Below, piece after piece: positions 20,654 to 41,566 of a stretch of DNA of 64,000 nucleotides. The stretch lies in NCBI GenBank assembly GCA_037445065.1, contig JBBILD010000001.1, forward strand, positions 56,716 through 120,715, read 5' to 3'. The stretch is from Myxococcales bacterium (GTDB lineage: Bacteria > Desulfobacterota > Binatia > HRBIN30). The position numbers were made by a program, and so were the translations under genes. The notes beneath the pieces are model-generated. The model worked only from the letters and a program-made list of their open reading frames with translations, was not told the origin of the DNA and made no database searches. Within the stretch, counting starts at the first letter, position 1, and each line of letters starts with the position of its first letter.

Positions 20654-21658
20654 ATGAGTGTCGCCATGTGGGCAAAGGCGGTTCGAGTAATCCCACGGGT
20701 TGATAAAACGGAGTGGGAGCAACTCGACGTCATCTCTCGCTGGTTGATTGCAACGCGCTCTGCGGTCTTGGTGATGACCTTGAATTCCGCTGTGCTGGCA
20801 GGATTGTTGGCCTGGCGGGATGGAAAATTTTCGTTTTTGCCCTGGCTGTTGGTGACGGTTGGGCTTTTGCTCGCGCACGCTACGAATAATCTGGTGAACG
20901 ACCTCACCGACCACTGGAAGGGTGTTGACCGGGACAACTATTTCCGGGCTCAGTACGGCCCGCAGCCGCTCGAGCATGGTTTGCTCTCGATTCGCGAAGT
21001 GCTCGCTTACATCGCGGTGACCGGAGGGACCGCGTTGCTTGTGGGGCTGGTGCTGGTTTACTGGAGGGGTGCACCAGTTGCGGCTTTGCTCGCAGCAGGC
21101 GCGTTCTTTGTACTGTTTTATACTTGGCCGCTGAAATTCATTGGCTTGGGCGAGCCAGCTGTGGTGGCTGTGTGGGGGCCGCTGATGGTGGGTGGCGGGT
21201 ATTTTGTCGTAACCGGAGAGCTTCGCGGAAGCATACTTTGGGCAAGTTTGCCACTCGCCTTGGCGGCCACCAGCGTGCTGTTTGGTAAACATATCGACAA
21301 GCACGATGCTGACCGAGAAAAAAGAATTTATACCCTGCCGGTACTCTTGGGCGAGCGGGCCGCGCGCTGGGTGGCGGTTGTCTTGATAATCGCGATGTAC
21401 GCGGTGACACTGGCGCTGGTCTTGAGCGGTGCGTTCGGTTGGCCCCTCTTACTGGTCGTTGGTGCGCTGCCTGCGGGTCACCTGGCGGTACGGGTGTACT
21501 TGCAGCCGCGACCAAAAACTCCTCCCGAGGAATATCCACTAGGAATCTGGCCGTTGTGGTATTCTGCGTTTGCGTTTCGCCACACGCGCCGGTTCGGCGC
21601 CCTGTTCTTGTTGGGCACGGCGCTAGAAGCCGGCATGTGGCGTCTGTTCGGCGGTTGA
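20654..21658 (+). CDS. menA: 1,4-dihydroxy-2-naphthoate polyprenyltransferase (UbiA family, MenA-like)
   Basis: ATR motif, NNLVNDLTDHWKGVD, YTWPLKFIGLGE, DKHDADREKRIYTL and multiple TMs. Confidence 0.8.
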   Translation: MSVAMWAKAVRVIPRVDKTEWEQLDVISRWLIATRSAVLVMTLNSAVLAGLLAWRDGKFSFLPWLLVTVGLLLAHATNNLVNDLTDHWKGVDRDNYFRAQYGPQPLEHGLLSIREVLAYIAVTGGTALLVGLVLVYWRGAPVAALLAAGAFFVLFYTWPLKFIGLGEPAVVAVWGPLMVGGGYFVVTGELRGSILWASLPLALAATSVLFGKHIDKHDADREKRIYTLPVLLGERAARWVAVVLIIAMYAVTLALVLSGAFGWPLLLVVGALPAGHLAVRVYLQPRPKTPPEEYPLGIWPLWYSAFAFRHTRRFGALFLLGTALEAGMWRLFGG

Positions 21659-21695
21659 TAAAGGCCTGACAAAAGTCCTCGTTTCGGAGGTCAGT

Positions 21696-22976
21696 ATGGG
21701 CGTCGAAATACAGCAGGCACCCGTGGAGCAGCTCGACATCATTAGTGCGAGAACCTACGGAGAACACGGTTATCCGCACGAGGCCTGGGCCAGGCTGCGT
21801 CGTGAAGCTCCGGTCTGTTTCATGCGACCGCCCGGTTACCGCCCTTTTTGGGCGATCACGAAGCACGCTGATGTGATCGAGGTCTCCACGCAACCGGATA
21901 AGTTCAAAAGCGCGGGGCGATTCATCCTGTTTCCCGAGGCTGCTGAGTCCTCTGGACCTCGTCTCGAAGAAGACCCGCCCCTGCGTATGCTGGTTAACAT
22001 GGATCCCCCGGAACACCGAACCTACCGACGTCTCGTTAGCGGTTGGTTTACACCTCGAGCGATTGCCCGCTTGGAGCAACGGCTGGTCGAAATCACGCAC
22101 GAAATCTTTGATGATCTCGCTGGCGACGGCGGTTGGCGCGAATGCGACTTTGTGCGTGATGTGGCGGCTCTCCAGCCCTTGCGGATGATCACAGAGATCC
22201 TGGGGATTCCCAGACAAGATGAGCAGTTCGTGTTGCGGGTGACAAACGAAAACTTCGGCCTCGAGGACCCCGAGTTTCAGCGACCTGGTGACACGCGTGC
22301 GGAGCGCTTGGGTTTTTTGCAAGAAGCGTTTGCCTATTTACAGCAGATCACGGAAGACCGGCGCGCGAACCCGCGCGAAGATTTGAGTACGGTGCTGGCG
22401 CACGCCACGATCAACGGAGAGCCGGTACCGCAATTTGAGTTGTTTTCGCTGTATTTCTTGATCATGGTCGCTGGGCATGACACCACCAGGAACTCAATTG
22501 CAGGAGGTCTCCTGGCCTTGATCGAGCACCCACAGGAGCTGGCACGGCTTCGCGCAAATCCCCACCTCATTGAAACCGGAGCGGACGAAATTGTTCGCTG
22601 GACAAGCCCTGTGATTCACTTTTCCCGCACGGCGACGGTGGACTACGAGCTGCGTGGCCAGAGGATCCGCAAGGGGGACTCGGTGGCTTTGTTTTATCCG
22701 TCCGCGAATCGTGACGAAGAAGTATTCCCGGACCCGTTTGTTTTCCGCTTGGATCGGGAACCCAATCCACACTTGGGGTTTGGAGTCGGAGAGCATTTCT
22801 GTTTGGGAGCGCACTTGGCACGGCTCGACATCAAGGTGTTTTTTCGAGAGTTCGCGCGCCGTGTCGAGGCAATCGAACTTGCCGGCCCCGTGGAGCGCTT
22901 ACACGCTAGTTTTGTCGGGGGTCCCAAGCGCATGCCCATTCGGTGGCGGCTAAAGCCGCGCGCCGCCGTAAACTGA
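21696..22976 (+). CDS. Cytochrome P450 (CYP125/CYP124-like)
   Basis: MDPPEH, AGHDTT, EIVRW (ExxR) and HLGFGVGEHFCLG heme motif. Confidence 0.95.
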   Translation: MGVEIQQAPVEQLDIISARTYGEHGYPHEAWARLRREAPVCFMRPPGYRPFWAITKHADVIEVSTQPDKFKSAGRFILFPEAAESSGPRLEEDPPLRMLVNMDPPEHRTYRRLVSGWFTPRAIARLEQRLVEITHEIFDDLAGDGGWRECDFVRDVAALQPLRMITEILGIPRQDEQFVLRVTNENFGLEDPEFQRPGDTRAERLGFLQEAFAYLQQITEDRRANPREDLSTVLAHATINGEPVPQFELFSLYFLIMVAGHDTTRNSIAGGLLALIEHPQELARLRANPHLIETGADEIVRWTSPVIHFSRTATVDYELRGQRIRKGDSVALFYPSANRDEEVFPDPFVFRLDREPNPHLGFGVGEHFCLGAHLARLDIKVFFREFARRVEAIELAGPVERLHASFVGGPKRMPIRWRLKPRAAVN

Positions 22977-23095: not shown

Positions 23096-26000
23096 TCAGC
23101 GACAGACAAACGTACTCCCGCTTCGTGAGAACTCACACCGAGGGCGCACGCTAGTGCTTTCATTGAACGTAAGGCTGCTGCACTGTCCCATTGCTGCGCG
23201 GCTCTGATTACCGAGGACAACGATCAGCTGAACCGGGTCCTTGCCTGGCTGAATCTGAAAATCGCCGGTCTTTCCTTTGATGGTCACGGTAAAAAGACCC
23301 GGCGTCCGCGTGGAACTGCGAACGGTTGCCTTTACAATGTCCCCTTGGAGCCGGTCAGGGTCGCGGTAAGTGGCTACATGGCCGCTGGTACTGAGTCGCC
23401 AACCAACGTCCGAGCGCGAGGTGGCAGCGCCTCCCGGAACGATCCTTTGCCACAGCAGATTCCCGTTTCGATCGAGCACCGCGAAACGGATTCCCTCCGC
23501 AACTGGGTTAGGCGCTGGGACGGCGGGTGCGAGCATCCAGGCCACCCGAATGCTGAGGTTTTCATCGCCTGCTGGATCGGGGTTCCGTGTGATCTTCAGT
23601 TTTGCTGGAGAAGGAACAGTAGTGCCGCTGCAAAAGACTTCTGGCAGTGGGGTCGTTGTTGGCGTTGGGGTCTCGGTTTCCGTAGGGGTCGGCGTCTCGG
23701 ATGGTGTGGGCGTCTCGGATGGTGTGGGCGTCGAGGTCGGAGTCTGAGTGGGGGGATCCGTTGGCGTCTGCGTGGGCGTCCAGGTCGGTGTCAGTGTGGG
23801 CCCGCCGGGTGTGATTGTCACAGTAGGTGTTGGGGTGGGCGTAAAGGTGAGGCTGGGTGTCGGCGAGAGCGTGGGAGTGCTTGTCCGGGTTATGGTTGCT
23901 GAGGGCGTCCAGGTTAGGGTTGGGGTCGGTGTCAGCGTGGGCACGGGCGAGAGGGTCGGGGTCTGGGTGGCGGTCAAAGTTTGGCTCGGCGAGGGCGTGG
24001 CTGTGCGCGTCGGGGTTCGTGACGCAGTCGCCGTGGACGTAGCGCTAGGAGTGGGGGTGGCAGTCGCGAAGTTCGGGGTGCTGTTGGGGTCAGCCGGGTC
24101 GGAGCCCGCGTCGATTTCGTCGCGATCGAAATAAGAGTCCTCGTCACGGTCGACGCCCATCCGCACCGCGGATCCTAACGGGACGGCCGTATACGTAAGC
24201 TCCTGACCTGGGATGGAAGCCACCATGCGCAGGGAAGAATCGGTCCAGGCGGGCTCACCGGCTCGGTCGCTTTGGAAGGTACCAGTGGCTGTACGGTACC
24301 AGCCGCGCATCTCGCCGTTGTAAAAACCTTTCACGACGATGTCCGTTTCCCCCGCGGCAGCGCGCTGCAAAAGCAGGTCGATGCGCGGATTAGCCACTGC
24401 AGCGTTGGCTGAGGTCAGGGTAACCTGCTGTCCAACAACGGGGAAGAGATCCGTGTCGAACGCGAGCAGAAACTGCTCCACATTGCGCCGCTGGGTGTCC
24501 CCGCCGTCGAAGCCAGCCCCATTTTGGTTATTGAAGACGGTGGCATTGAGAAATCGAAAGAGGGTGTCCACGCTACCGTCGTGGAGAAAGCCGAAGCCCC
24601 GGATTTGGTCACCCTTGTGTCCGTTGTCGCCAGAGTTGAAGAACGGAACGGCTGCCATCCCGAACATTCCGACTTTTTGGTAGAGGTTTCGCAGGTGGGC
24701 GATCTTGATGACTTGAGGCTCGTTTTCGAAGCTGGCCTTCCCATCTGTGCCGAAGAACCCTTGAGCACGGTTTGTCACGTGGCAGCCGTTGCAAGTGTGT
24801 CCAAGCGCGCTGTCCGTACCATCCGTGCCGAACGGGATTCCATCTGCGCGGCGAGGACCAAAGAAGAAGTCGCGGCCCGCTTGCTGTGCCGGTGTGAGGG
24901 AGTTGTCTAGGGCGCGGATGGGATTCGGCGGCAACTTTACTTGCAAGATAAAGTCAGTAAACGCTTGCATCTCTGCTGCGGTGAGTTGCGCGCTTCGGCC
25001 AAGCAGTCCAGGGAAAGCGACGTTGAACGCCTTGAACGCAAGATCCGCGCTGAAGGGCTGAGAACTTCCTCCATTGCGGTCACCCCGCCAGTGCATGGCC
25101 CCGTGGTTGACGAGCCCTCGTAACGTTTGCGTGGTCATCGGGCCTTTCATTGGATGAAAATCGCGGAACACTCCGCTGGGAATGAACGAAGCCAGTTTCA
25201 CAGGAAGCGGGTTCGTCTGGGTTTCATCGTCCGGGTTGCCGAGATCCCAGGCGAGGCTGTCGAGGTCTGCGAAGATGTGACAACTTGCACACGCTGCTTC
25301 TCCGTTGCTCGAGGTATATTGCGCATCGTACAAAAAGCGCCGCCCATTAATCACCGAAGCCGGTTCGGGATTATAGAGGGACACGTGGTCCACCTCGGTT
25401 TTGGTCGCCGTGTCCACGATTGCGATCCCGTTGTCGAAACGCGTCAGGACGTAAAGTCGTTGCCGCGTTTCATCGAGGGCCAAACCCGCCGGCCCGCCGC
25501 CGCTGACAGAAATGTAGTTGGCGCCGTTCGGAACAAATGTGTCGGCCTCGAGTTCGGCAGTTTGAAAAACGCCGACTTTGCTGGAGCCGAAAGCCGCGAC
25601 GTACAGGGTCTGGCCATCACTGGTCACGACCATGTCCAGCGGTGTGGCAAGGCTGTGATCCTTGGCCCCTGGCGGAGCTGGGCGCTGACTGTAGTCAATG
25701 TGCTTGTTCAGATGGCGTGGTAGCACATTGGAGCCGGACAGAACCGTAATCCTCGCCTCGGCGAGGTGCCCTTGCACTGTGGTTCCCCCGAACTGGGCCG
25801 CAAAGACTCCGGGACCTTCGAACCGAAACTCGTTGCGCGCCTCGAAGTTGCTCACGTAAATTTTCCCGGTAACCGGGTTCGTGACCATGTTGAACAAGAT
25901 CGTCCCGACACCGGCGAAGTAGCCCGCTCCACCGGGGAGTTGGGCCGGCGGGTTGGCGTTGGCGTCGATGACAAACACGTCCTTGTCGGGTAAGTTGAAT

Positions 26001-26926
26001 TTGACGGCATTGTTCCAGTTGCGCCCACACACGCTTCCTGGGCAGTCCGCATCGGTGGTACAACTCCAGCCGTACTTAGACCCACCTGCGCACGCCTTAT
26101 CCGACCAGTACGATCCATTCCACTTGACGATGAGGCCGACCTCGGGCGCCGCCGCACCGGTGTGATCGCGCGTAGGCAGCGGTAATCCGCCCGGGTATGT
26201 CACTCCAGAAACCGTGCAGGGCCCCGCAACTACGTTATCCCCTTTGTTCGAGTCGTCGCACACGACGCCTTCGTTGACCACCGTGGTTTGGTTTCCAGAG
26301 TGAAAGACCGCCGCGTACACTCTGCTGCCATCCGGACTGACGGCAAGAGCGCGCGGCGTATCGCCAAACAACGTGAGGATGGCCAAGGGTATGCCGCCCA
26401 GCGAGCTTCCGAGATTGTTGGCATCGAAGACCCACACATCCGCGCGCCCGATTCCGGGTGTGGTGAGTTGGGGGTCGTTCGGGTTATTTTGCCCGCGATG
26501 GGCACACGTGATAAACGCCCGATTTCTGCCCGGGCCGGCGAACACGATGTCCCGTGGTTCATCTCCGACTAATAGAGTGCGAACGACGCGGGCAGGGAGG
26601 GACGACAGGTCCACAATGCTCACAGAGTCCGACAAGTGGTTGACTACCCAGACCTCGGTGTTCGTGCGGGCAGCCACCGCCACTGGTTCTAAGCCTACTG
26701 GCACGGAGTCCAAATGCGTCAGGGATCCGTCAGGATTAATGGAAAAGATTTCTAGGCGGCTGTCAGGGATGTTGGTCGCAAAAAGCTTGCTCCCGTCGGG
26801 GGACTTGGCCAGCGGCCGCACGGGGCCACTTTCGAACAGTGTGTACGGGCCTGCCGCGAGAACCCGAGGCAACGACAATAGTAACGTGAATCCAACCCAA
26901 AACGCCCCGCGTGCGAGCGATTGCAT
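23096..26926 (-). CDS. Large secreted YVTN/YncE beta-propeller plus di-heme (CCP/MauG-like) protein with Pro/Thr linker and Cys-containing C-terminal domain
   Basis: Signal peptide. Propeller repeats (VPVGLEPVAVA, VGDEPRDIVFA). CASCH and CNGCH heme motifs, HWRGDR, FLHDGS. Acidic DRDEDSYFD...DPADP motif and TPTP linker. Confidence 0.8.
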   Translation of the reverse strand: MQSLARGAFWVGFTLLLSLPRVLAAGPYTLFESGPVRPLAKSPDGSKLFATNIPDSRLEIFSINPDGSLTHLDSVPVGLEPVAVAARTNTEVWVVNHLSDSVSIVDLSSLPARVVRTLLVGDEPRDIVFAGPGRNRAFITCAHRGQNNPNDPQLTTPGIGRADVWVFDANNLGSSLGGIPLAILTLFGDTPRALAVSPDGSRVYAAVFHSGNQTTVVNEGVVCDDSNKGDNVVAGPCTVSGVTYPGGLPLPTRDHTGAAAPEVGLIVKWNGSYWSDKACAGGSKYGWSCTTDADCPGSVCGRNWNNAVKFNLPDKDVFVIDANANPPAQLPGGAGYFAGVGTILFNMVTNPVTGKIYVSNFEARNEFRFEGPGVFAAQFGGTTVQGHLAEARITVLSGSNVLPRHLNKHIDYSQRPAPPGAKDHSLATPLDMVVTSDGQTLYVAAFGSSKVGVFQTAELEADTFVPNGANYISVSGGGPAGLALDETRQRLYVLTRFDNGIAIVDTATKTEVDHVSLYNPEPASVINGRRFLYDAQYTSSNGEAACASCHIFADLDSLAWDLGNPDDETQTNPLPVKLASFIPSGVFRDFHPMKGPMTTQTLRGLVNHGAMHWRGDRNGGSSQPFSADLAFKAFNVAFPGLLGRSAQLTAAEMQAFTDFILQVKLPPNPIRALDNSLTPAQQAGRDFFFGPRRADGIPFGTDGTDSALGHTCNGCHVTNRAQGFFGTDGKASFENEPQVIKIAHLRNLYQKVGMFGMAAVPFFNSGDNGHKGDQIRGFGFLHDGSVDTLFRFLNATVFNNQNGAGFDGGDTQRRNVEQFLLAFDTDLFPVVGQQVTLTSANAAVANPRIDLLLQRAAAGETDIVVKGFYNGEMRGWYRTATGTFQSDRAGEPAWTDSSLRMVASIPGQELTYTAVPLGSAVRMGVDRDEDSYFDRDEIDAGSDPADPNSTPNFATATPTPSATSTATASRTPTRTATPSPSQTLTATQTPTLSPVPTLTPTPTLTWTPSATITRTSTPTLSPTPSLTFTPTPTPTVTITPGGPTLTPTWTPTQTPTDPPTQTPTSTPTPSETPTPSETPTPTETETPTPTTTPLPEVFCSGTTVPSPAKLKITRNPDPAGDENLSIRVAWMLAPAVPAPNPVAEGIRFAVLDRNGNLLWQRIVPGGAATSRSDVGWRLSTSGHVATYRDPDRLQGDIVKATVRSSTRTPGLFTVTIKGKTGDFQIQPGKDPVQLIVVLGNQSRAAMGQCSSLTFNESTSVRPRCEFSRSGSTFVCR
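23644..24068 (-). repeat. Pro/Thr-rich low-complexity linker (TPTP repeats) inside the CDS
   Basis: About 140 aa of (T/S)PT repeats, including tandem TPTPSE units. Confidence 0.9.
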
Positions 26927-27039
26927 AGCCGTGTCCAATCTTCCCTCCCCAGATGGGGCGTCGCTTACCACAGGTGGAGTTCGATTGACAACACAATAAC
27001 GCAACCTTCTTGTGCCACGGGAGGACAAAGCGCGAGGCG

Positions 27040-27065
27040 GGAATAAAATGAAAAGAATGAACGTA
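27040..27065 (+). promoter_or_regulatory. Candidate ECF (SigR/SigH-type) autoregulatory promoter
   Basis: GGAAT-N17-CGTA with an A-rich spacer, 38 nt upstream of the ECF sigma start. It resembles the GGAAT-N18-GTT SigR/SigH consensus. Confidence 0.55.
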
Positions 27066-27103
27066 GTAAGTGGCGGTAGTTGTAAAAGCTAGAAAACCAT
27101 AAG

Positions 27104-27676
27104 ATGGCCTGGCCAGGAAAAGATCGCGGGTGGTTCGAGCGCGAGGTCCTACCTCATCTCTCTGCACTGTATCAGTTTGCCGTAGAGCTGGCCGGCCTAG
27201 ACGACGCAGAGGACCTTGTGCAGACGGCCGTTCTGCGTGCATGGCAGCGGCGGGCATTGGCGCGGCCGGACCGCAGTTTGCGACCCTGGCTCTTTGCGAT
27301 TCTGCGGCATGAGTGGATCGATGAATGTAGGCGGCGCCAGCGTGTCGGTCGCTGCGACAACGTAACGGAGGAGTTGCTTCTGACGCCGTTGTCTTCTGAT
27401 CCAGTGGCATTGGTGGCTCAACAGCGAAATGCTCGCCGGGTGCGGGACGCTCTCCGGGCCATTCCTGAGGCGTTCCGTTGGCCGGTTTACTTGAAGGACG
27501 TCGAGGGGTTCGGGTACCGCGAAATCGCGGAAATTTTGGGACTTCCTATCGGTACCGTAATGAGCCGTCTCGCCAGGGGCCGCGCGCTGCTCCGAGAGCG
27601 CCTGGAGGAAGTGGCAGCGGAGTCAGGTGTTGCCGGGTCACGGTCCGTCGTAAGGAAGCGGACAAATGGATTGTAG
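27104..27676 (+). CDS. ECF RNA polymerase sigma factor (SigR/SigH-like)
   Basis: DAEDLVQ, RPWLFAILRH, and region 4 DVEGFGYREIAEILGLPIGTVMSRLARGR. Confidence 0.92.
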   Translation: MAWPGKDRGWFEREVLPHLSALYQFAVELAGLDDAEDLVQTAVLRAWQRRALARPDRSLRPWLFAILRHEWIDECRRRQRVGRCDNVTEELLLTPLSSDPVALVAQQRNARRVRDALRAIPEAFRWPVYLKDVEGFGYREIAEILGLPIGTVMSRLARGRALLRERLEEVAAESGVAGSRSVVRKRTNGL

Positions 27677-28493
27677 TAGTTGTCAGCGGTACGTGACCGC
27701 ATACGTCGATCACGAGCTGGGCCTGGAACAAATGCTCCTTGTCGAGGAGCACGTTGCCGCGTGTTCTGCTTGCCGTGGGCGGCTCGAGAACGAGCGGGAA
27801 ACAGCCCTTCTGGTAGCCGAATACTTTCCGCGCCTGGTGGCTCCGGAACGTTTGCTGCATCGGATTCGAGCTGCGCTTCGCTCGCCGGTGCGGTGGCCCG
27901 TGCGCAGCACACCGGTTTGGCCCCTGGCTGCCGGTTTATTCTTGGTTTGGTTGGGTTGGTGGATCGGAATCGGGGGTGTCTTGAGCAAGAACCCACCGGA
28001 AATCGTGCGCGACGCCATTGAGCTTCACCGCCACTCAGGGCTTCCCGATGCTTCGGCTGTGCGAACGGATGATCCCGCCCTTGCGAATCGATGGCTGCGG
28101 GAGCGGCTTGCGTTCATTCCTGAGGGTGCGCTCAGAACGCCGGATGGTGCCGAACTCGTGGCTGCACAGGTCGTCACCATTGCTGGCACGTCGGCGGGTT
28201 TCGTCCGCTACCGGGCGCGGGACGGGCATGTTTCGTTGTTTCTCCTCCCGGCACGCTCTCTTCCCGCTAGCGGGGAGAAATTTTGGGTCGGCGGAGTGGA
28301 GTTTCGAGCCTACGCGTGGCAAGGAGAAAGGCCAATTTTGTGGAATCATGACTCCGTTTCTTACATTTTAGTCGCTGAGTCGAATCGGGAAATCGGGGAA
28401 CATGTCCGCGACCGGTCCCCGCGGGCCTGCGGGGTGTGTCATTCGGTCGGGAACGAATGGGCCCGGAAGCTCTCCTCCGGAGAGTTGTTGTAA
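27666..28493 (+). CDS. Zinc-finger (ZAS) transmembrane anti-sigma factor with C-terminal CxxCH
   Basis: N-terminal C...YVDHEL...HVAACSAC (HxxxCxxC), one TM, extracytoplasmic domain, and CGVCH at 28428-28442. Overlaps the sigma stop. Confidence 0.85.
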   Translation: MDCSSCQRYVTAYVDHELGLEQMLLVEEHVAACSACRGRLENERETALLVAEYFPRLVAPERLLHRIRAALRSPVRWPVRSTPVWPLAAGLFLVWLGWWIGIGGVLSKNPPEIVRDAIELHRHSGLPDASAVRTDDPALANRWLRERLAFIPEGALRTPDGAELVAAQVVTIAGTSAGFVRYRARDGHVSLFLLPARSLPASGEKFWVGGVEFRAYAWQGERPILWNHDSVSYILVAESNREIGEHVRDRSPRACGVCHSVGNEWARKLSSGELL

Positions 28494-28510
28494 CGAGTTG
28501 GGGTGGACGG

Positions 28511-29641
28511 ATGAGAAAACCAGCAAGATCTTTGGCGGCCTCTCTTTTCGGTGCTTTTGCATTGTACCTCCCGAAGGGCGTGTTGGAGCCAATCATTCCG
28601 GCAGACAACCCATTGACGGTCGAGAAAGTGGAATTGGGAAAGAAACTGTATTTTGACAAACGCCTTTCGGCGGATGGGACGGTGGCTTGTGCTACCTGTC
28701 ACGATCCCACGAAGGGCTTCTCGGACGGTCGTCCTGTGGCCACTGGGATCCGCAACCAAGCGGGTGCTCGCAACTCGCCAACCGTCTTGTACGCTGGGTT
28801 CAGCGAGATCCAGTTCTGGGACGGGAGAGCACCATCCTTGGAAGAACAGGCAAAACAGCCCCTCATCAACCCGGTAGAAATGGGACAACCGTCGCATGAT
28901 GCGGTCGTGAAGGCGGTGCAGGCGGTTGCCGACTATCCGCCCCTGTTCCAGCGCGCCTTTGGTAGCCCTACGATCACGATTGACCGGATTGTTCAAGCAA
29001 TCGCCTCCTTCGAGCGAACACTGGCACCGTTTTCCTCGCCCTTCGATCGCTTTCTGGCCGGGGAAAAAGACGCGATTAGCGACTCCGCCAAGCGCGGCTT
29101 CCAGCTGTTTTTGGGTAAGGCGCGCTGCGTTACCTGCCACGAATTCAACGCCGCATTTCCGTTCTTTACCGACAACAAGTTCCACAACATCGGCGTGGCA
29201 ATGAAAGGGAACTTCGAACAGTTGGCCCGCGAGGCGCAAGCCTTGGTGGGTCGTGGGAAAGAGGCCGAAGCGGAGCTCACCCACAAGCCGGGGGTCGAAG
29301 CACTGGGCCGCTGGATCGTTTCCCGCGAGCCAAAGGACATTGGAGCCTTCAAAACCCCGGGCCTTCGCAACGTCGCCTTGACGGCGCCGTACATGCACGA
29401 CGGCAGCTTGCGAACGCTCGAAGAGGTGATGGAGTTCTACAATAAGGGCGGGGAACCAAATCCCAACTTGGACGGAGGCATGCGCCCGCTCGGCCTCACG
29501 CAGCAGGAAATCACAGATATCATCGAGTTCATGAAGAGCCTGACGGACGAAAGTGGAGGCAAGAATTTCAACTGGGAGGAATTGAAAGCGTTGGCTCAGA
29601 AAACACGCGCTGGGGAGTTGGTGCCGGGCCCCGCGCCGTGA
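28511..29641 (+). CDS. Di-heme cytochrome c peroxidase / MauG family protein
   Basis: LGKKLYFDKRLS, CATCH, RNSPTV, QFWDGRA, CVTCH and FKTPGLRNVALTAPYMHDGS...EFYNKGG. Confidence 0.92.
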   Translation: MRKPARSLAASLFGAFALYLPKGVLEPIIPADNPLTVEKVELGKKLYFDKRLSADGTVACATCHDPTKGFSDGRPVATGIRNQAGARNSPTVLYAGFSEIQFWDGRAPSLEEQAKQPLINPVEMGQPSHDAVVKAVQAVADYPPLFQRAFGSPTITIDRIVQAIASFERTLAPFSSPFDRFLAGEKDAISDSAKRGFQLFLGKARCVTCHEFNAAFPFFTDNKFHNIGVAMKGNFEQLAREAQALVGRGKEAEAELTHKPGVEALGRWIVSREPKDIGAFKTPGLRNVALTAPYMHDGSLRTLEEVMEFYNKGGEPNPNLDGGMRPLGLTQQEITDIIEFMKSLTDESGGKNFNWEELKALAQKTRAGELVPGPAP

Positions 29642-29676
29642 GAACGGAACACGGTACCGGGAAGGAGGAATGAGTC

Positions 29677-30825
29677 ATGGCAAAGTACACGCTCCCTCAG
29701 GAACGGAAAAAACAAGAGTATCTGGGCGAGCGCGACCGGTTTTTCGCCGAGCTGCCTAAGCTCAACCGTCGAGACTTTTTCAGGGTTGCCGCCAAGGCAG
29801 CGGCAGTGGCCACCGCGTTCTGGAAGGGGTATCCACCCCACTCGTTTCAACTGATTCGGGTTGCCGAAGCGAAGCAGAGCCAACCTAAATTCACGTTCGC
29901 GTATATCTCCGATACACACATTCTCGACAAAGGGCTCAATCATCGCTTTGTCAAAGCCTGCCAGAAGGCGGTTCAGGACGTGAATGCGCTCGATCCGCAG
30001 CCCGATTTTGTCTTGTTCGGGGGCGACTTGGCGCAGTTGGGCAAGGCCGAGGAGCTGTCGATCGGGCAGCAGATCTTGAAGGAGTTAAAAGCTCCCGTAC
30101 GCATGATGGTTGGCGAGCATGACTGGTACTTGGACATGGGCGAGAAGTGGCGCGAAATGTTCGGTGAGCCCACGTATTCGTTTGATCACAAGGGCGTCCA
30201 CTTCGTTGTTTTGAATTCGGTGATCGTCGAGGACTATTGGACCGAGCCGAAGATGACCCCGATGGAGCGCATGCTCGCTATGGCGCAACTCGACAATCCG
30301 AACGGCCGCCCATTTATGGTAGGCGAAGAGCAACGCGATTGGTTGCGGAAGGATTTGGCGAAGGTCGACAAAAAGACTCCAGTCGTGGTCTTCTCGCACT
30401 CCCCGCTATACAAGTACTACCGCCCATGGAACTTTTGGACCGAGGATGCCGAAGAGGTCCAGAAGTTGCTGTTTCCGTTCGAATCGGTGACCGTCATCCA
30501 CGCGCACACGCATCAGGTGCTGACCAACCGCATCCGCAACATTACCTTCCATGGGGTTTTATCGACCGCCTGGCCCTGGCCGTATGCGCCCACCGGGATT
30601 CCAGAACTCACCGTTCAAATGGTCCGGGCGGACCCTTTTAATCAGTTCGATGGTTGCGGCTGGGGAACCGTCTCGATGCGAGAAGATGGCCAGGCGGACA
30701 AACACTACGTACTCTGGGACCGGAACCCAATGACCGTGACGTTTGACCACGTGCGCCGAGGCAAGGAAGGAATGCGTGAGCTGGCAAAGCCGTTCCAGGG
30801 TAGCCTGAGCTGGCCATCGTACTGA
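29677..30825 (+). CDS. Tat-exported calcineurin-like metallophosphoesterase
   Basis: LNRRDFF twin-arginine motif. SDTH, GGDL, GEHD, SHSP and HAHTH metal motifs. AGGAGG RBS. Confidence 0.88.
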   Translation: MAKYTLPQERKKQEYLGERDRFFAELPKLNRRDFFRVAAKAAAVATAFWKGYPPHSFQLIRVAEAKQSQPKFTFAYISDTHILDKGLNHRFVKACQKAVQDVNALDPQPDFVLFGGDLAQLGKAEELSIGQQILKELKAPVRMMVGEHDWYLDMGEKWREMFGEPTYSFDHKGVHFVVLNSVIVEDYWTEPKMTPMERMLAMAQLDNPNGRPFMVGEEQRDWLRKDLAKVDKKTPVVVFSHSPLYKYYRPWNFWTEDAEEVQKLLFPFESVTVIHAHTHQVLTNRIRNITFHGVLSTAWPWPYAPTGIPELTVQMVRADPFNQFDGCGWGTVSMREDGQADKHYVLWDRNPMTVTFDHVRRGKEGMRELAKPFQGSLSWPSY

Positions 30826-30857
30826 CCGAACCCCGGCTGGACGGAAGGAGAACACAG

Positions 30858-31466
30858 ATGCGTTGGGTTGCAAAGAGACAGTGGCTGTTTGGGTTTGCCG
30901 GGCTGCTCGCAATTTCGATGCGTCCGGCTTACGCGGGCGAGATTGCCAAGCATCAATTGCCCTCAGCCCCGGATGGGCAAAGCAAGGTGGTGGGCCTATG
31001 TGACGGAGAAACGTCCGTTGTGGTCCCCGGTGTCGCTGCCCATGATCGAATGAGTCCTCAGCAGGCACGTTCGGTCGCAACGGAACTCATGCGGCGGCAC
31101 GAGGAAAAGAACCAAGTAGCCCACGGAGGGCAGGAACACACGCAGCGCGAGATCCGGGTTTGGGAAGCGGAGCTGAAGCGTGTCGTTGACGAAGGATACC
31201 GGTTATTTCACTCGCCGGAGCTTGGGACCAACGGCATTTCTTGCGACATGTGTCACCCGGATGCGAGCAATACCCACCCGGAGACATACCCGAAGTTCCA
31301 AACCCAGCTTCGCCGCATTGCGCTGCTGCGCGACATGATCAACTGGTGTATTGAAAACCCGATGGAGGGTCCGCCACTACCGGAACACGATGATAAGATG
31401 AAGGCGTTGGAGGCATACATCATCTCAACTAGGAAGGGTGTGGCATTAGCTCCCGGCAAGCATTGA
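30858..31466 (+). CDS. Periplasmic mono-heme cytochrome c, SoxA/TsdA-like domain
   Basis: Signal peptide, CDMCH, and YPKF...MINWCIENPMEG...MKALEAYI resembling the His/Cys-heme domain of SoxA/TsdA. Confidence 0.8.
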   Translation: MRWVAKRQWLFGFAGLLAISMRPAYAGEIAKHQLPSAPDGQSKVVGLCDGETSVVVPGVAAHDRMSPQQARSVATELMRRHEEKNQVAHGGQEHTQREIRVWEAELKRVVDEGYRLFHSPELGTNGISCDMCHPDASNTHPETYPKFQTQLRRIALLRDMINWCIENPMEGPPLPEHDDKMKALEAYIISTRKGVALAPGKH

Positions 31467-31834
31467 TAGCGGAAGTCGGAGTCGCCGTTATTCTGGTCTT
31501 TTTCGGGGCAGGGGCCTCTGCGGGCGAGGAGGGGAAGTATCGCACTCGCCTCCTCGCCCGTGAGTTCCTCGAGCACCAACAGCAACTTGGTTTGGACCAG
31601 TCGCAGGTAGAACGACTCGAGGCGCTCGCTCAACGGTGGGAAGCGACCCACCGGGCACTGGCGCCGCGGGCATCGAAGGACGGGTATGCGAGCGTACAAG
31701 AAAAGGCGGACGCCTTATTCGTTTGGAAGGAGCTGAGCAGCCAGCGCGTTCTCGTTGACCGAGACGCATTGTTCGTGCTCTCCCCCGAGCAGCGCCAGAG
31801 GTGGCGGGGGCTTCATTCGCAAAAAACCCCATGA
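31463..31834 (+). CDS. Small helical periplasmic protein (Spy/CpxP-like)
   Basis: Signal-like N-terminus, QLGLDQSQVERL and VLSPEQRQRW (LTxxQ-like). TTGA overlap with the cytochrome stop. Confidence 0.55.
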   Translation: MIAEVGVAVILVFFGAGASAGEEGKYRTRLLAREFLEHQQQLGLDQSQVERLEALAQRWEATHRALAPRASKDGYASVQEKADALFVWKELSSQRVLVDRDALFVLSPEQRQRWRGLHSQKTP

Positions 31835-31950: not shown

Positions 31951-33405
31951 ATGGATCGGCGCAGAAAGAAACCTGTGGGCGTACGGGGTGTCACCCGTCG
32001 AAGGGCATTGCAGCAAATCGGCGCGGCCGCCGGCGCGCTTTCGCTCTCCCCCCTGTGGATGGGCTGCGGCGACGATGGAGAGAAAGGGTTGTTCGACCAA
32101 CCTCCTTTGACGCCTCAAGAGTTGCGCGTCGACACGGTTGTGCTGGTCATGATGGAGAACCGAACCTTCGACCATTTTCTGGGCTCGTTGTCGCTGCACG
32201 AGGGAAGGTCGGTGGACGGCCTGCGAGCCGAGTTCTGGAACCCACGCCCTGACGGAAGTCGCGTACCGGTGTTCCCGTTGGGACCTCGGTGTGTTGCTGA
32301 TCCTCCACATGGCTGGGAGGCAAGCTTCCGCCAGGTCAACGACGGCCGCATGGACGGCTTTGTGCGCGAGCACTCCGCGGAGGTGGGTGCGGAACATGGG
32401 GATGAGGTCATGGGATACTACCAGCGTGCCCAGTTGCCCATTTACTACGCGCTGGCTGATGAGTTCGTGCTCTGCGAACGCTGGTTTTGCTCGGTGCGCG
32501 GCCCGACATGGCCGAACCGGATGTACTTGCATGCGGCGCAGTCCGATGGCCGCAAGGACAATAGTTTTCCTGGGCCGGCGGGTTTTCGCTTTGCCACGAT
32601 TTACGACGTACTCAACGCTGTCGGGATCGAGTGGAAGTACTACTTTCTTGACTTGCCGTTCTTAGCCCTCTGGGGGAGCCTGCGCACCCAATCGCAACGC
32701 TTGCGCCCGCTCGAAGAATTCTTCGAAGATGCTCGCTCCGGTCGGCTACCACCCGTGACAATCGTGGAGCCGGGGTTCACGCTGAACGACGACCATCCTC
32801 CGCACGACATCCAATTGGGGCAGGCGTTCATTGCGGCGGTTCTTCGAACCTTAGGAACTAGTCCTCACTGGCCCCGCTGCCTCTTCATCCTCACGTACGA
32901 TGAACACGGCGGTTTCTTTGACCACGTACCACCACCGACTGTACCGGACGAGCGCTCTGACCAAGGTTTCGGTGCCTTGGGCCCGCGTGTCCCAAGTTTT
33001 CTCGTATCCCCGTGGGCCAAGCGCGGGTTCGTGAGCCCTACGGTATATGAACACAGCTCGTTTCCCGCTTTCCTTGAGTTTCTCTTTGGTCTGGAACCTT
33101 TGACCATGCGGGACGCTCAAGCGAACATCTTTTTGGACGCTTTTGACCGAGATCGCCTGCTGCGCAACGACCCGCGCTCTTTCCCGGCCTTGCCCCAGCT
33201 TGTCGTGGACGAGGAGCCTGCGCCGGAGTGCGTCGCCCTCGGGGCACCCTCGGGACAAGCGGCCATTCAGGATATCGAACGCTGGGCAGATACCGGCGCC
33301 TTGGAGCGCGAGCTCGACCGGCGAAAGTACGCGCGAGAAACCCTTACCTATATCAACCGGCAGTTGGTGCGCTCCGGCTGGGCACGCTGGCGGCACAGCA
33401 GTTGA
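31951..33405 (+). CDS. Tat lipoprotein phosphoesterase (phospholipase C / AcpA family)
   Basis: TRRRAL...WMGC signal, MMENRTFDHFLG, GPTWPNR, DDHPPH, TYDEHGGFFDHV and GPRVP. Confidence 0.9.
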   Translation: MDRRRKKPVGVRGVTRRRALQQIGAAAGALSLSPLWMGCGDDGEKGLFDQPPLTPQELRVDTVVLVMMENRTFDHFLGSLSLHEGRSVDGLRAEFWNPRPDGSRVPVFPLGPRCVADPPHGWEASFRQVNDGRMDGFVREHSAEVGAEHGDEVMGYYQRAQLPIYYALADEFVLCERWFCSVRGPTWPNRMYLHAAQSDGRKDNSFPGPAGFRFATIYDVLNAVGIEWKYYFLDLPFLALWGSLRTQSQRLRPLEEFFEDARSGRLPPVTIVEPGFTLNDDHPPHDIQLGQAFIAAVLRTLGTSPHWPRCLFILTYDEHGGFFDHVPPPTVPDERSDQGFGALGPRVPSFLVSPWAKRGFVSPTVYEHSSFPAFLEFLFGLEPLTMRDAQANIFLDAFDRDRLLRNDPRSFPALPQLVVDEEPAPECVALGAPSGQAAIQDIERWADTGALERELDRRKYARETLTYINRQLVRSGWARWRHSS

Positions 33406-38074: not shown

Positions 38075-38848
38075 ATGGTTGGTCAACGCACAGTTCTGCT
38101 GCACGGAGTGCTGTTTGCGGTAACGCTAGCGGGTTGCGTAGGGCGTTACGTTCGGCTGGACCAGAAGGGCATGACTTGTGTCGAGGCCCACCAAATCGCG
38201 CTCGCTACGGTGCAACGCCTCGGTTACGCGGTGGTCGATTCCACTAGACCCGCCCCTGGGTCGCCTGGGTTGGTAACTGGAAGCCGGGGCGAAGGCTCAC
38301 AGGTACGCAAGGTATTGGTCCAGGTGTTTTGCACAGAGATGGGCGCCCAGGTGGAAGCACGGACGGAAGGAGAAGGGTTGCCGGACCTCTCTTTTGCCAA
38401 CGAGTTCCAGAAAGGCTTTGCCGCGCTCGCGGCCCAACGCCCTCGACCGCGAGAGTTGGCGAGTCAGGGGATTGACGTGGCTGTGCATCCCGAGCGAGCC
38501 AGCGCCAGTGAGTTAGGAGTGGATGTATCGCTTCTCGGCGTGGTACCCGTGAGTGTAAGAATCGCGAATCACACCACCCGTTCATACCGTTTGCTCGTGA
38601 ACCGAATTCTTCTCCAGGATGACCGTGGCGGCCGAACGCCTCCGTTACCGGCCAGTGAGGTTTTGACAAAACTTTCGGAGGAGCAGCGTTCAGCCGTGGC
38701 GCCCCGCCTCCTCCGCGACCGAGTGGTGCGGCCAGGAGAACTGGTGGAGGGTTACCTGTTCTTTCCCTTCGCAGCGTATTCTCGAGCCCGAGTGAGCTTA
38801 CAGGATATGGAGAGCGAGGAGCTAGAAGGCTTTACGATCGAGTTTTGA
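38075..38848 (+). CDS. Hypothetical lipoprotein
   Basis: Lipobox VTLAGC and a C-terminal beta domain (VEGYLFFP). No family recognised. Confidence 0.6.
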   Translation: MVGQRTVLLHGVLFAVTLAGCVGRYVRLDQKGMTCVEAHQIALATVQRLGYAVVDSTRPAPGSPGLVTGSRGEGSQVRKVLVQVFCTEMGAQVEARTEGEGLPDLSFANEFQKGFAALAAQRPRPRELASQGIDVAVHPERASASELGVDVSLLGVVPVSVRIANHTTRSYRLLVNRILLQDDRGGRTPPLPASEVLTKLSEEQRSAVAPRLLRDRVVRPGELVEGYLFFPFAAYSRARVSLQDMESEELEGFTIEF

Positions 38849-40634: not shown

Positions 40635-40681
40635 GTGCCCCGGTTGCTTGCAATTTGCGCAGCCGGCACCATGCGTGGGCC

Positions 40682-41566
40682 ATGCGAGCGCAATGGGTGA
40701 ACCTGAGTCTGTTTTGCTTGATTCTCTCATGGGTTGTTTCCGTGCGGGCTCAGTCGCCCTCCGCTCTCGCTCCATTACGAACGGAAGTGGCTGCGCCGGT
40801 AGGCGATGGCATCGCGGAAGCGAGCCTAGCGTTCGTGTACCAGCGGAACGAGCGTTTTCCGTTTTTCACCACTCCCGGAGCGATCCGCACGCAGGATCGC
40901 ATTCACCTGCCGGTGCTGAGATTCCGCGCCGGGGTGGGCTCGCGCGTTGAGATCGACGCCCAGCACGAAATGATCTACCTGGACGAGACAACTCGCGACG
41001 GCTTGTCCAACTGGCAGTACGGGACCGGGGATGCGCAGCTTCACACGAAGGTCGCCGTCGTGAAGGAGCAGGGGCTCGTTCCGGCAATCTCCGTCCGCTT
41101 CGGTACCAAGCTCCCGAACGCGAGCCGCGTTGATCGACTCGGCACCGATGAGACCGATTTCGACATCCTTGCGTTGCTAAGCAAGGACCTGGGAACTGTG
41201 TCTCTTCACACCAACTTGGGGATCGCTCTTCTCGGCAATCCTGGATCATCCCCGCTGCCCGGTGCTTTCGAAGCCGGAGGTCAGGATGACCTATTTGTTT
41301 ACTCCGTGGCCTTGGCTTCTAGGCCCTGGGCTGTTTGGGGCCAGGAAGCTCCTGCGCTCCGATGGGTCCTAGAGTTCGATGGTACGACAGGGTCGCGGTT
41401 CGGTAACGATCGCTCGCGCTGGAGTGCGGGGGTCAGATGGGAGCACCTCGGCTGGAGCTATTTCTTCGGCGGCAGCGCGGGGCTAACGCGAGGCAGCGAA
41501 GACTTCGGGCTCGGCCTGGGCCTGGCGTACCGATGGGATTTGGGAGCGTTGTTGCGCGGCCCGTGA
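40682..41566 (+). CDS. Putative outer-membrane beta-barrel protein
   Basis: Signal peptide, amphipathic beta strands, GTGDAQL, KLPNA...LGTDETD and a terminal GLAYRW strand. Confidence 0.55.
   Translation: MRAQWVNLSLFCLILSWVVSVRAQSPSALAPLRTEVAAPVGDGIAEASLAFVYQRNERFPFFTTPGAIRTQDRIHLPVLRFRAGVGSRVEIDAQHEMIYLDETTRDGLSNWQYGTGDAQLHTKVAVVKEQGLVPAISVRFGTKLPNASRVDRLGTDETDFDILALLSKDLGTVSLHTNLGIALLGNPGSSPLPGAFEAGGQDDLFVYSVALASRPWAVWGQEAPALRWVLEFDGTTGSRFGNDRSRWSAGVRWEHLGWSYFFGGSAGLTRGSEDFGLGLGLAYRWDLGALLRGP

Follow-up and report, generated by a model that had tools for sequence, protein, structure and literature searches.

A MauG/MbnH-type di-haem enzyme (D), an exported two-metal protein of the metallophosphoesterase fold (E) and a SoxA/TsdA-type cytochrome (F) form a conserved gene unit that recurs in hundreds of bacterial species. 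In the window, the whole 64,000-nucleotide stretch of DNA analysed, this unit follows the genes for an ECF sigma factor (B) and a membrane anti-sigma factor (C). We believe that the locus probably encodes an autoregulated ECF sigma/anti-sigma switch, which in turn drives a conserved three-protein redox complex in the periplasm. What was established here comprises the genes present, their synteny, the ligand residues, a promoter motif and a computed complex.

Gene content of the locus

The seven open reading frames, their overlaps, six CxxCH motifs and the GGAAT-N17-CGTA element were all confirmed on re-reading the window sequence. The features are listed below by position in the window.

23096-26926, - strand: A, 1276 aa from the ATG giving MQSLARG; secreted beta-propeller plus di-haem CCP-like protein with a Thr/Pro-rich linker
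27040-27065, + strand: ECF-type promoter-like element, GGAAT-N18-GTA, -35 = GGAATAAA
27104-27676, + strand: B, ECF sigma factor, 190 aa; Sigma70_r2 48.6 bits, Sigma70_r4_2 52 bits
27666-28493, + strand: C, membrane anti-sigma, 275 aa; zf-HC2 36.5 bits
27750-27773, + strand: ZAS motif of C, H29-x3-C33-x2-C36
about 27915-27983, + strand: single TM helix of C
28428-28442, + strand: CGVCH ending the periplasmic domain of C
28511-29641, + strand: D, MauG/MbnH-type di-haem enzyme, 376 aa; CCP_MauG 205 bits
28688-28702, + strand: CATCH of D
29126-29140, + strand: CVTCH of D
29438-29440, + strand: Tyr310 of D, aligned with MauG Tyr294
29677-30825, + strand: E, Tat-exported metallophosphoesterase-fold two-metal protein, 382 aa; Metallophos 63.3 bits
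29767-29772, + strand: RR of E (Tat motif RRDFF)
29911-29919, + strand: DTH of E
30112-30123, + strand: GEHD of E
30427-30429, + strand: Trp251 of E
30858-31466, + strand: F, SoxA/TsdA-type mono-haem cytochrome, 202 aa; SoxA-TsdA_cyt-c 46.4 bits
30999-31001, + strand: Cys48 of F
31242-31256, + strand: CDMCH of F
31347-31349, + strand: Cys164 of F, aligned with the Cys of MINAC in SoxA 1h31
31463-31834, + strand: G, small exported protein, 123 aa; final gene of the + strand run

The Sigma70_r2/r4, zf-HC2, CCP_MauG, Metallophos and SoxA-TsdA_cyt-c matches exceeded the Pfam cut-offs. C overlaps B by 11 nt, the gaps C-D, D-E and E-F are 17, 35 and 32 nt, and G starts with a TTG within a TTGA overlap on the stop codon of F. 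A GTG at 28436 is a less likely alternative start of D. The original prediction had described the sigma and anti-sigma genes and those downstream as one tightly packed unit, and this is supported. A second phosphoesterase gene (PF04185) starts 116 nt 3' of G.

Conservation of the D-E-F unit

The E family matched at least 581 species loci, and 80 loci were fetched and kept for the synteny comparison. The carriers of the family included myxobacteria, Acidobacteriota, Kryptonia, Brocadia, NC10 and Methylocella. D and F were each present in 77 of the 80 loci, and all three genes in 74, where the order was D-E-F in every case except one (73/74; L042 is D-F-E). In all six loci missing D or F, E lies at a contig end, and D-E-F is syntenic wherever the flank suffices. 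This indicates that the recurrence is more than chance. Clustering of the neighbouring ORFs gave no further gene common to more than 22 of the 80 loci. In the neighbourhood check proposed with the original prediction, the conserved unit, D-E-F, is smaller than the one first drawn.

A and G had been counted as module members, which the comparison did not support. A homologue of A was found only in the closest relative (L001, 1/80), and no promoter match facing A was found; homologues of G were found only in L001 and L002 (2/80). A and G are therefore lineage-specific neighbours, and A lies outside the conserved unit. The six CxxCH motifs reported around one intergenic region are present in four proteins (two in A, CASCH and CNGCH; one in C; two in D; one in F), but since A and G are lineage-specific, their grouping is partly a coincidence of neighbourhood. 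The profile matches of A were a Lactonase/YVTN propeller and weak hydrazine-synthase beta/gamma rows. For the label "Spy-like" given to G, the only match in its favour was a sub-threshold LTXXQ one (E 0.034, 15.3 bits, cut-off 24.3). The literature searched gave no described pathway matching the cluster, so the original statement to that effect stands.

The sigma factor, its promoter and the anti-sigma factor

The element GGAATAAAATGAAAAGAATGAACGTA at 27040-27065 can be read as GGAAT-N17-CGTA or GGAAT-N18-GTA and ends 38 nt before the ATG of the sigma gene. GGAAT..GTT is the SigR promoter consensus, and GGAATAAA-N15-GTT precedes the sigma gene in the relatives L001-L003. GGAATAA occurs 67 times on both strands of the whole 3.79-Mb genome; of seven genome-wide matches to the full pattern, only the element at 27040-27065 clearly precedes a gene. 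Within 450 nt upstream of D and on its strand, 21 of the 72 usable loci carry GGAATAA, whereas a background of 0.035 per strand-kb would give about 1.3. These 21 take in every one of the 17 non-Binatia loci whose sigma gene is adjacent. In L001-L003, as in the window, the sigma gene heads the operon and the motif lies ahead of that gene. Wherever a sigma gene adjoins, a GGAATAA..GTT/C promoter precedes D or the sigma gene. The GGAAT..GT(T/A) element first noticed in the window is conserved in relatives and is also found before D where the sigma gene is divergent. A B-like ECF sigma gene adjoins D-E-F in 20 of the 80 loci. The other 60 lack one, so that a minority of carriers is under ECF control. 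The best NCBIfam rows of B were PRK12533 and SigH_actino, both below cut-off. A Fur-family regulator precedes D in seven of the 80 loci. Among the four scanned, the best NCBIfam row was PerR in three, and in L070 IrrA was followed by PerRB; all PerR-like scores were below their cut-offs. These putative PerR-like regulators suggest a peroxide link.

Residues C33, C36, C255, C258 and H259 were invariant in 17/17 anti-sigma sequences, and H121 was nearly so. The C-terminal CxxCH, the haem-c attachment motif pointed out originally, was thus kept in Binatia, Acidobacteriota, Kryptonia and Myxococcota. Judging from this motif, which by itself does not prove attachment, C seems to carry its own covalent haem. 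The original term "haem-sensing" was not supported; a putative haem-bearing sensor is the better description. Relatives of C are named in source records only as "zf-HC2 domain-containing protein" or "anti-sigma factor RsiW", and C scored 31.5 bits against the RsrA model (cut-off 62.5).

Conserved residues of D, E and F

D scored 260.8 bits against the NCBIfam MauG model and 250.8 bits against MbnH, both below cut-off. Tyr310, at the position of MauG Tyr294, was present in 72/72 orthologues, and peroxidases align Met there. Trp103 was kept in 68 of the 71 orthologues having a residue at that position. In PDB sequence matches, the best full-length hit was cytochrome c551 peroxidase (3o5c, E 5.3e-55), MbnH reached E 8.7e-55 and BthA (6nx0) E 4.1e-19; the C-terminal domain was nearest MbnH (6e1c, E 2.9e-17). 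The earlier statement that no mau or mbnP genes are present is true within the window, but a MADH light-chain match and an MbnP-like match lie on other contigs of the genome.

All canonical metal ligands of E, like its catalytic His, were kept in 80/80 sequences, so hydrolysis by E is possible; in the same 80, GEHD replaces GNHD. Among wider relatives, Glu stands at the Asn position in 89/92, and the following His is missing in 10/92. E also has an invariant Trp/Tyr cluster (W251, W254, W299, W301, Y303). Outside the three closest relatives, identity across phyla is 58-71%. Of 43 representatives scanned, three relatives are fused to a cupredoxin and one to a Rieske domain. The closest folds to the predicted model of E (pLDDT 89.6) were those of GpdQ, Rv0805 and purple acid phosphatases, with Foldseek E-values of 3e-16 to 1e-10, a query TM of 0.45-0.53 and 13-18% identity. 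The YaeI match of E (E 0.0025) lay far below cut-off. In F, Cys164 was present in 74/74 and Cys48 in 75/75 sequences having a residue at the position in question, and Cys48-Asp49 is a second invariant site. Cys164 occupies the position of the SoxA MINAC Cys, the haem ligand of SoxA. F scored 37.3 bits against the SoxA NCBIfam model (cut-off 110), and SoxY was not found in the 97.7%-complete genome.

Predicted D-E-F complex

Three-chain fold prediction gave a median score of 0.70 (runs 0.77, 0.70 and 0.48), the model's own confidence, against 0.00 for the best control. A mark of 0.70 was reached by 58/80 solved complexes and 2/110 mismatched pairs, counts that hold only roughly for D-E-F because the input was three chains with our own alignments. 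At least 60% of contacts agreed between runs, and partner pLDDT was at least 85. Residues 130-135, 164 and 167-168 of F were predicted to contact residues 83, 120, 204-206, 251 and 299-302 of E, and the predicted contacts of D flank its second haem motif. With D replaced, the score was 0.00, so the E-F contact is not confident without D. Contact residues conserved at 90% or more were enriched in F (9/16 vs 34/147 elsewhere, p 0.008) and E (18/30 vs 121/304, p 0.03) but not in D (4/14 vs 92/315). The prediction supports a D-E-F complex with the haem loop of F over the metal site of E.

Proposed mechanism and alternative explanations

In the mechanism that we favour, the cytoplasmic ZAS domain of C would hold sigma B, and its periplasmic domain would bear one covalent c-type haem. 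B might be released by a redox or peroxide signal at this haem; the free sigma factor would read the GGAATAAA..GT(T/A) promoter and transcribe its own gene and those for C to G. D, E and F would then assemble, with the His/Cys haem loop of F capping the two-metal site of E and D docking on E via the domain with its His/Tyr six-coordinate haem. Most likely, D would take oxidising equivalents from H2O2 and pass them through the complex to the composite metal-haem site, where they may oxidise a small periplasmic substrate; our guess is an oxyanion, of sulfur or another element, or a metal ion. Phosphoester cleavage would be a less likely activity. We infer that C bears a haem, and likewise infer the signal, which way electrons flow and what the substrate is.

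In the original prediction D was a maturase. D would use H2O2 to install in E or F a protein-derived cofactor, for example a modified Trp or Tyr; these two would then be the working enzyme, and D would be required for biogenesis only. The MauG Tyr ligand and bridging Trp of D, its MbnH-like C-terminal domain, the Trp/Tyr cluster of E and the predicted D contacts beside the second haem motif all fit. BthA, a MauG-like enzyme, adjoins a putative purple acid phosphatase that has been suggested as its target (PMC6405878). D falls below the MauG and MbnH cut-offs, its predicted interface is not conservation-enriched, and the fusion of relatives of E to cupredoxin or Rieske domains speaks for continuous electron transfer, not a single maturation event. 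This role is possible, though we consider it rather unlikely; it is compatible with the mechanism above and does not exclude it. That D, F and E are ordinary parts, namely a plain cytochrome c peroxidase and its electron donor with an unrelated exported phosphatase between them by chance, is very improbable. The peroxidase 3o5c is the best full-length match of D, and PerR-like regulators precede D in seven loci. However, E stands between D and F in 73/74 loci across many phyla and, at 58-71% identity, is far more constrained than a bystander; Tyr replaces the peroxidase Met, and the complex scores above its 0.00 controls.

Two further readings, which we hold to be about equally improbable, turn on the chemistry of E. 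In a miniature Sox-like system, the haem of F would couple sulfite or thiosulfate oxidatively to a Cys, E would hydrolyse the sulfonate off like SoxB, and D would remove the electrons. The SoxA/TsdA-type domain of F, its MINAC-aligned Cys and invariant Cys48-Asp49 agree with this, as does the predicted placing of Cys164 and the haem loop on the metal site of E. SoxB, a Tat-exported two-manganese hydrolase, belongs to the same superfamily as E. Against it, F is far below the SoxA cut-off, SoxY was not found, the carriers have no sulfur-oxidising lifestyle in common and the regulators are stress-type. Alternatively, E could be a periplasmic phosphodiesterase or phosphatase of the GpdQ/purple-acid-phosphatase kind, its metal pair being shifted between Fe(III) and Fe(II) by F and D so that the enzyme is switched on or off under oxidative stress. 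Mammalian purple acid phosphatase undergoes reductive activation, the nearest folds and sequences of E are of this kind, its metal ligands and the GEHD His are kept in 80/80 sequences, and the PF04185 gene follows G. Yet F covers the active-site mouth in the predicted complex, the catalytic His is missing in 10/92 wider relatives, the Asn-to-Glu change is invariant in E, and identity to any characterised esterase is 13-18%.

Comparison with known systems

C resembles the ZAS anti-sigmas (RsrA/SigR, ChrR/SigE, RsiW) in its N-terminal HxxxCxxC zf-HC2 domain and the GGAAT..GTT-type promoter, and differs by its TM helix and by the invariant CxxCH that closes its periplasmic domain. The MauG/pre-methylamine dehydrogenase and MbnH/MbnP systems use a His/Tyr six-coordinate haem to oxidise a partner protein over distance. 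D shares their Tyr and Trp as well as the two haem motifs; unlike them, it is below both NCBIfam cut-offs and is partnered by a two-metal phosphoesterase-fold protein and a cytochrome. Like E and F, the Sox system brings together in the periplasm a Cys-ligated haem of the SoxA type and a metallophosphoesterase-superfamily protein exported by Tat. The differences are the SoxY search result, the SoxA score of F, the stress-type regulators and the size of E, which at 382 aa presumably lacks the second domain of SoxB. From its closest solved folds, GpdQ (Enterobacter), Rv0805 (Mycobacterium) and purple acid phosphatases, E is set apart by its Tat signal, its haem-protein partners, GEHD in place of GNHD and a C-terminal extension rich in Trp. 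YkuE of Bacillus subtilis is likewise a metallophosphoesterase exported folded via Tat; it belongs to a different subfamily, and the available part of the source describes no haem partners (PMC5449189). The nearest parallel to D/E is BthA/PhosA of Burkholderia, in which a Tyr/His-ligated MauG-like di-haem enzyme always adjoins an exported putative phosphatase that its authors suggest BthA may oxidise, and for which the accessible part of the source mentions neither a SoxA-type cytochrome nor an ECF pair (PMC6405878). A further difference is that E is nearer GpdQ than the purple acid phosphatases.

Gene run in the window and its neighbors

The original prediction described a compact run of genes on the + strand, and all of its genes, overlaps and CxxCH motifs were re-found in the window.

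Features of the gene run, with the handles used in the text
23096-26926, - strand: A, divergent gene for a propeller/di-haem protein, 1276 aa, two CxxCH
27040-27065: promoter-like element GGAATAAAATGAAAAGAATGAACGTA
27104-27676, + strand: B, ECF sigma factor, Pfam match over the cut-off
27666-28493, + strand: C, anti-sigma factor, 11-nt overlap with B, one CxxCH, Pfam match over the cut-off
28511-29641, + strand: D, di-haem enzyme of the CCP/MauG family, 17-nt gap after C, two CxxCH, Pfam match over the cut-off
29677-30825, + strand: E, metallophosphoesterase with an RRDFF Tat motif, Pfam match over the cut-off
30858-31466, + strand: F, mono-haem SoxA/TsdA-type cytochrome, one CxxCH, Pfam match over the cut-off
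31463-31834, + strand: G, small exported protein, 123 aa, start inside a TTGA overlap with the stop of F

The CxxCH motifs number six (A, two; C, one; D, two; F, one). A sigma-70 consensus scan gave 1 promoter-like site against 1.3 expected and was uninformative, and a terminator consensus scan of the + strand 3' of the G stop found no terminator-like site. The assignment of G as a Spy/CpxP-like protein was dropped, as its LTXXQ match was sub-threshold only.

Protein A joins a YVTN/lactonase beta-propeller to a di-haem CCP-like region that weakly matches the hydrazine synthase beta and gamma subunits and MbnH. This region is followed by a long linker rich in Thr and Pro and then by a C-terminal domain of no assigned kind. 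A UbiA prenyltransferase and a cytochrome P450 are encoded directly past A (20654-22976, +). On the other side, a PF04185 phosphoesterase of the phospholipase C/acid phosphatase family (31951-33405, +; 484 aa, 267 bits) starts 116 nt 3' of G and is followed by a 676-aa protein with a matrixin (M10) motif. This phosphoesterase is a neighbor particular to the lineage of the window. A DsbD-type thiol:disulfide interchange protein lies 7 kb downstream (38832-40775, -).

Conservation of D, E and F

More than 5400 relatives of E were scored. Their identity was 58-71% across phyla with the three closest relatives excluded, and they are named only metallophosphoesterase, CpdA or Icc in the databases. 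A scan of one genome per species confirmed at least 581 loci, whose carriers include cultured myxobacteria, Acidobacteriota, anammox and NC10 bacteria. From these, 80 loci were kept for neighborhood work and searched with the seven window proteins by tblastn. D was present in 77 of the 80 loci, and so was F. In the 3 loci lacking D, E lies at most 811 nt from the contig start, and in the 3 lacking F, at most 269 nt remain past E. Because these misses have E at a contig edge, D-E-F is complete in every locus with room for it. The gene order was D-E-F throughout, with the sole exception of one locus (L042) that reads D-F-E.

A homologue of A was found in only one of the 80 loci (L001), and homologues of G in only two (L001 and L002). 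When all flanking ORFs of the 80 loci were clustered, no additional gene was common to more than 22 loci. The conserved unit is therefore D-E-F, and A and G are neighbors particular to the lineage of the window. The expected conservation of the neighborhood thus held across phyla for D, E and F and failed for A, which was rejected as a member (1/80), and for G (2/80). The earlier interpretation as an ECF-controlled, uncharacterised periplasmic redox module stands in part, with its extent narrowed to B-C-D-E-F and the wider neighborhood outside. This module is widespread and is assembled from known kinds of parts.

Family tests of D, E and F

Over its full length, D matched peroxidases and MbnH about equally; its C-terminal domain was closest to MbnH, then to MauG. 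The haem motifs CATCH and CVTCH were conserved in 71/71 and 72/72 of the sequences with a residue there. In the alignment to MauG chains, Tyr310 falls on MauG Tyr294, and Tyr occupies this position in 72/72 orthologues; Tyr310 is the predicted axial ligand of the six-coordinate haem. The tryptophan between the haems (Trp103) was found in 68 of 71 sequences. D lacks the canonical His/Met feature of cytochrome c peroxidase: its Tyr stands in the Met column of 3o5c, where Met is the ligand of the electron-transfer haem. Neither the MauG model TIGR03791 (260.8 bits against an equivalog cut-off of 443.85) nor the MbnH model TIGR04039 (250.8 against 362.85) was reached. The genome of the window holds only two CCP_MauG genes, D and one on contig C2 (58292-58753, +).

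E passed the metallophosphoesterase model PF00149 with 63.3 bits against a cut-off of 21.5. Its metal ligands D79, H81, D117, H241, H277 and H279 (DxH, GD, H, GHxH) were each present in 80/80 sequences. In place of the canonical GNH(D/E) motif, all 80 orthologues have GEHD. Among 92 wider relatives, Glu takes the Asn position in 89 and the next His is absent in 10, and among 43 distant representatives, three carry a cupredoxin domain and one a Rieske domain. The structural model of E was built on a 92-row alignment (pLDDT 89.6), and a 13-row version (pLDDT 56) was set aside. Its nearest folds were GpdQ, Rv0805 and purple acid phosphatases at 13-18% identity, and a sequence search of the PDB returned GpdQ and acid phosphatases only. 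Together, these observations point to E as a two-metal site that would exchange electrons, not a plain esterase. Residues 1-30 of E (29677-29766) form an unusually long, partly conserved, predicted helical stretch before the twin-arginine motif (helix 7-28 in the model), which may be the binding site of a Tat proofreading chaperone.

F passed the SoxA/TsdA domain PF21342 (46.4 bits against 27) and did not reach the SoxA model TIGR04484 (37.3 bits against 110). Its Cys164, present in 74/74 sequences, aligns with the Cys of MINAC in SoxA 1h31, the haem ligand of that protein. A second pair, Cys48-Asp49, was conserved in 75/75 sequences.

Predicted D-E-F complex

D (22-350), F (40-202) and E (49-382) were modelled together, each with its own alignment and with E as the scored partner. 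The three runs scored 0.77, 0.70 and 0.48 (median 0.70), and all three controls scored 0.00. In the calibration of the tool, 58 of 80 solved complexes and 2 of 110 mismatched pairs reached this mark. For D-E-F the calibration is only rough, since the alignments were our own and the submission had three chains. Contact agreement between runs was at least 60%, and the pLDDT of the partner was at least 85. The control with D replaced also gave 0.00, and the E-F contact is therefore not confident alone.

The top contacts on the F side are the CDMCHPD loop, Cys164 and Asn167-Pro168. On the E side they are Leu83 (by the DTH ligands), Gln120 (by the bridging Asp), Leu205-Asp206, Trp251, Trp299, Trp301 and Pro302. 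D contacts E through residues 205 and 208, which flank the second haem motif, and through 318-326. Contact residues were more often conserved than the rest in F (9/16 vs 34/147) and in E (18/30 vs 121/304); in D their conservation was not raised (4/14 vs 92/315). To our knowledge, no complex of this type has been solved.

Sigma factor, anti-sigma factor and promoter

A B-like sigma factor adjoins D-E-F in 20 of the 80 loci by tblastn. In Binatia it lies upstream and is co-directional; Acidobacteriota and Kryptonia have it in divergent orientation, and three Myxococcota have it downstream. B and C have the features of an ECF/class I (ZAS) pair: sigma regions 2 and 4 only, a zf-HC2 anti-sigma factor, and adjacent genes. 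The ZAS motif of C was confirmed as H29-x3-C33-x2-C36. The RsrA model (TIGR03988) was not reached by C (31.5 bits against 62.5), nor the SigH_actino model (TIGR02947) by B (119.1 against 251.55).

The homologues of C evolve fast, at 17-51% identity to C. All 17 aligned anti-sigma factors, from four phyla, retain the cysteines of the ZAS motif together with a CxxCH that lies 8-22 residues from the C-terminus, and His121 is nearly invariant among them. The CxxCH follows the transmembrane helix and therefore faces the periplasm, the side on which c-type haem is attached. C is a putative c-type haem protein. Relatives of C are named only zf-HC2 or RsiW-like in the databases. Word-based searches returned 4 proteins for the sequence of C alone and 29 for the profile. 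Most of these came from Kryptonia, and all had generic names; the ESM Atlas likewise gave generic names only for E and for the periplasmic domain of C.

Across 151 genomes of the window's phylum, the anti-sigma profile matched mostly the N-terminal ZAS domain. In one genome only (G143) did the match extend as far as position 253 of the 264-position profile, and this genome has E on the same strand at a distance of about 1.5 kb. Four genomes whose matches end at positions 204-235 have no E. All these numbers are too small for inference. The window's own genome holds a second, partial relative (contig C4, 87734-88327, +; profile positions 2-185 of 264, E-value 8.6e-23), far from any E gene.

The element GGAATAAA-N15-GT(T/A) precedes the sigma gene in the window and in its three Binatia relatives (L001-L003). 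Where the sigma gene is divergent or downstream, a matching element lies on the D strand, 41-307 nt 5' of D. Of 72 usable loci, 21 had GGAATAA before D, where the background of 0.035 per strand-kb would give about 1.3; these 21 include all 17 non-Binatia loci with the sigma factor. The 51 loci without the motif have no B-like sigma by tblastn, save L001-L003, where it stands before the sigma gene. In divergent acidobacterial loci, the putative promoters facing the sigma gene read by eye as GGAAT/GGAAG/GGACG-N17-18-GTT. A scan of the window's whole genome with GGAATAA-N15-17-GT[TAC] gave seven matches. Only the B operon's own promoter was clearly 5' of a gene, so the scan revealed no wider regulon. 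These comparisons support a predicted autoregulated sigma factor with D-E-F as its target; for A they give no such support.

In five Kryptonia loci (L005, L006, L007, L009, L018), a tRNA-like sequence was spotted by eye. It lies in the divergent intergenic region, with the sigma gene on one side and the D promoter on the other.

Seven of the 80 loci (L040, L044, L046, L060, L067, L070, L079) encode a Fur-family regulator ahead of D, on the same strand and about 2 kb before E; these seven are without the ECF pair. The best NCBIfam rows were PerR in 3 of 4 scanned, and IrrA then PerRB in L070, all below cut-off. A link to peroxide is hinted at by this regulator.

Proposed mechanism and alternatives

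From the observed gene content, synteny, ligand residues, promoter motif and computed complex, we infer the following as the most likely course. C would keep B bound until its haem receives a redox or peroxide signal from the periplasm, and freed B would then transcribe the operon. D would take up H2O2 and store oxidising equivalents on its two haems in the fashion of MauG. These equivalents would move on from D to E and F. There, a small substrate would be oxidised at a joint site that the metal pair forms with the Cys-ligated haem. It is possible, but on the whole doubtful, that D-E-F is a new kind of periplasmic metalloenzyme, in which a two-metal centre of phosphoesterase fold has become a redox site connected both to a Cys-ligated haem and to a di-haem enzyme capable of bis-Fe(IV), and which uses H2O2 to oxidise a small substrate. 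In this reading the enzyme is switched on by an anti-sigma factor sensing the periplasm via its own covalent haem, which would be the first such factor characterised.

Several other readings compete with the mechanism set out first. D may be a maturase, as its closeness to MbnH and MauG would suggest. The operon has no methylamine dehydrogenase genes, and no MbnP partner lies beside D. The only MbnP-like match of the genome is on contig C10 (7514-8260, -; 264.8 bits, over cut-off), and its one PF02975 match, a methylamine-dehydrogenase light-chain-like gene, is on contig C43 (818-1144, -; 166.3 bits); neither contig has a CCP_MauG match. Sox-like sulfur chemistry would draw on the SoxA/TsdA domain and Cys164 of F, and must be weighed with the failed SoxA model and with a search of the 97.7%-complete genome for SoxY (PF13501), the one Sox partner looked for, in which it was not found.

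E could also be a redox-switched esterase, a reading that keeps the phosphatase-like fold and full ligand set in their usual role and leaves the GEHD motif to be explained. Finally, D, E and F may be unrelated ordinary parts. Each does belong to a known kind; what such a reading must explain is their constant company and order and the computed complex. The reading that we favor, tentatively, is the stepwise mechanism set out first.

Significance and comparison with known systems

D, E and F are kept together in at least 581 species, and E bears generic names only. Should E prove to be a redox site, this would add a new chemistry to the metallophosphoesterase fold and a widespread new partner to those of MauG-type enzymes, with a bearing on the unsolved BthA/PhosA pair. 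A haem-c-bearing anti-sigma factor, if true, would open a new path by which the redox state of the periplasm reaches transcription. The module is testable in cultured, genetically tractable myxobacteria.

A literature search found no description of the D-E-F triad or of a haem-c anti-sigma factor. Assignments to MauG, MbnH, SoxA and RsrA each fall short in a defining feature that was tested. Among described systems, BthA of Burkholderia comes closest, a Tyr/His di-haem enzyme that is invariably beside a putative purple acid phosphatase and has an unsolved function (PMC6405878). D and E are only distantly related to BthA and its phosphatase and, as far as that pair is described, the module differs further in having F and the ECF sigma/anti-sigma pair.
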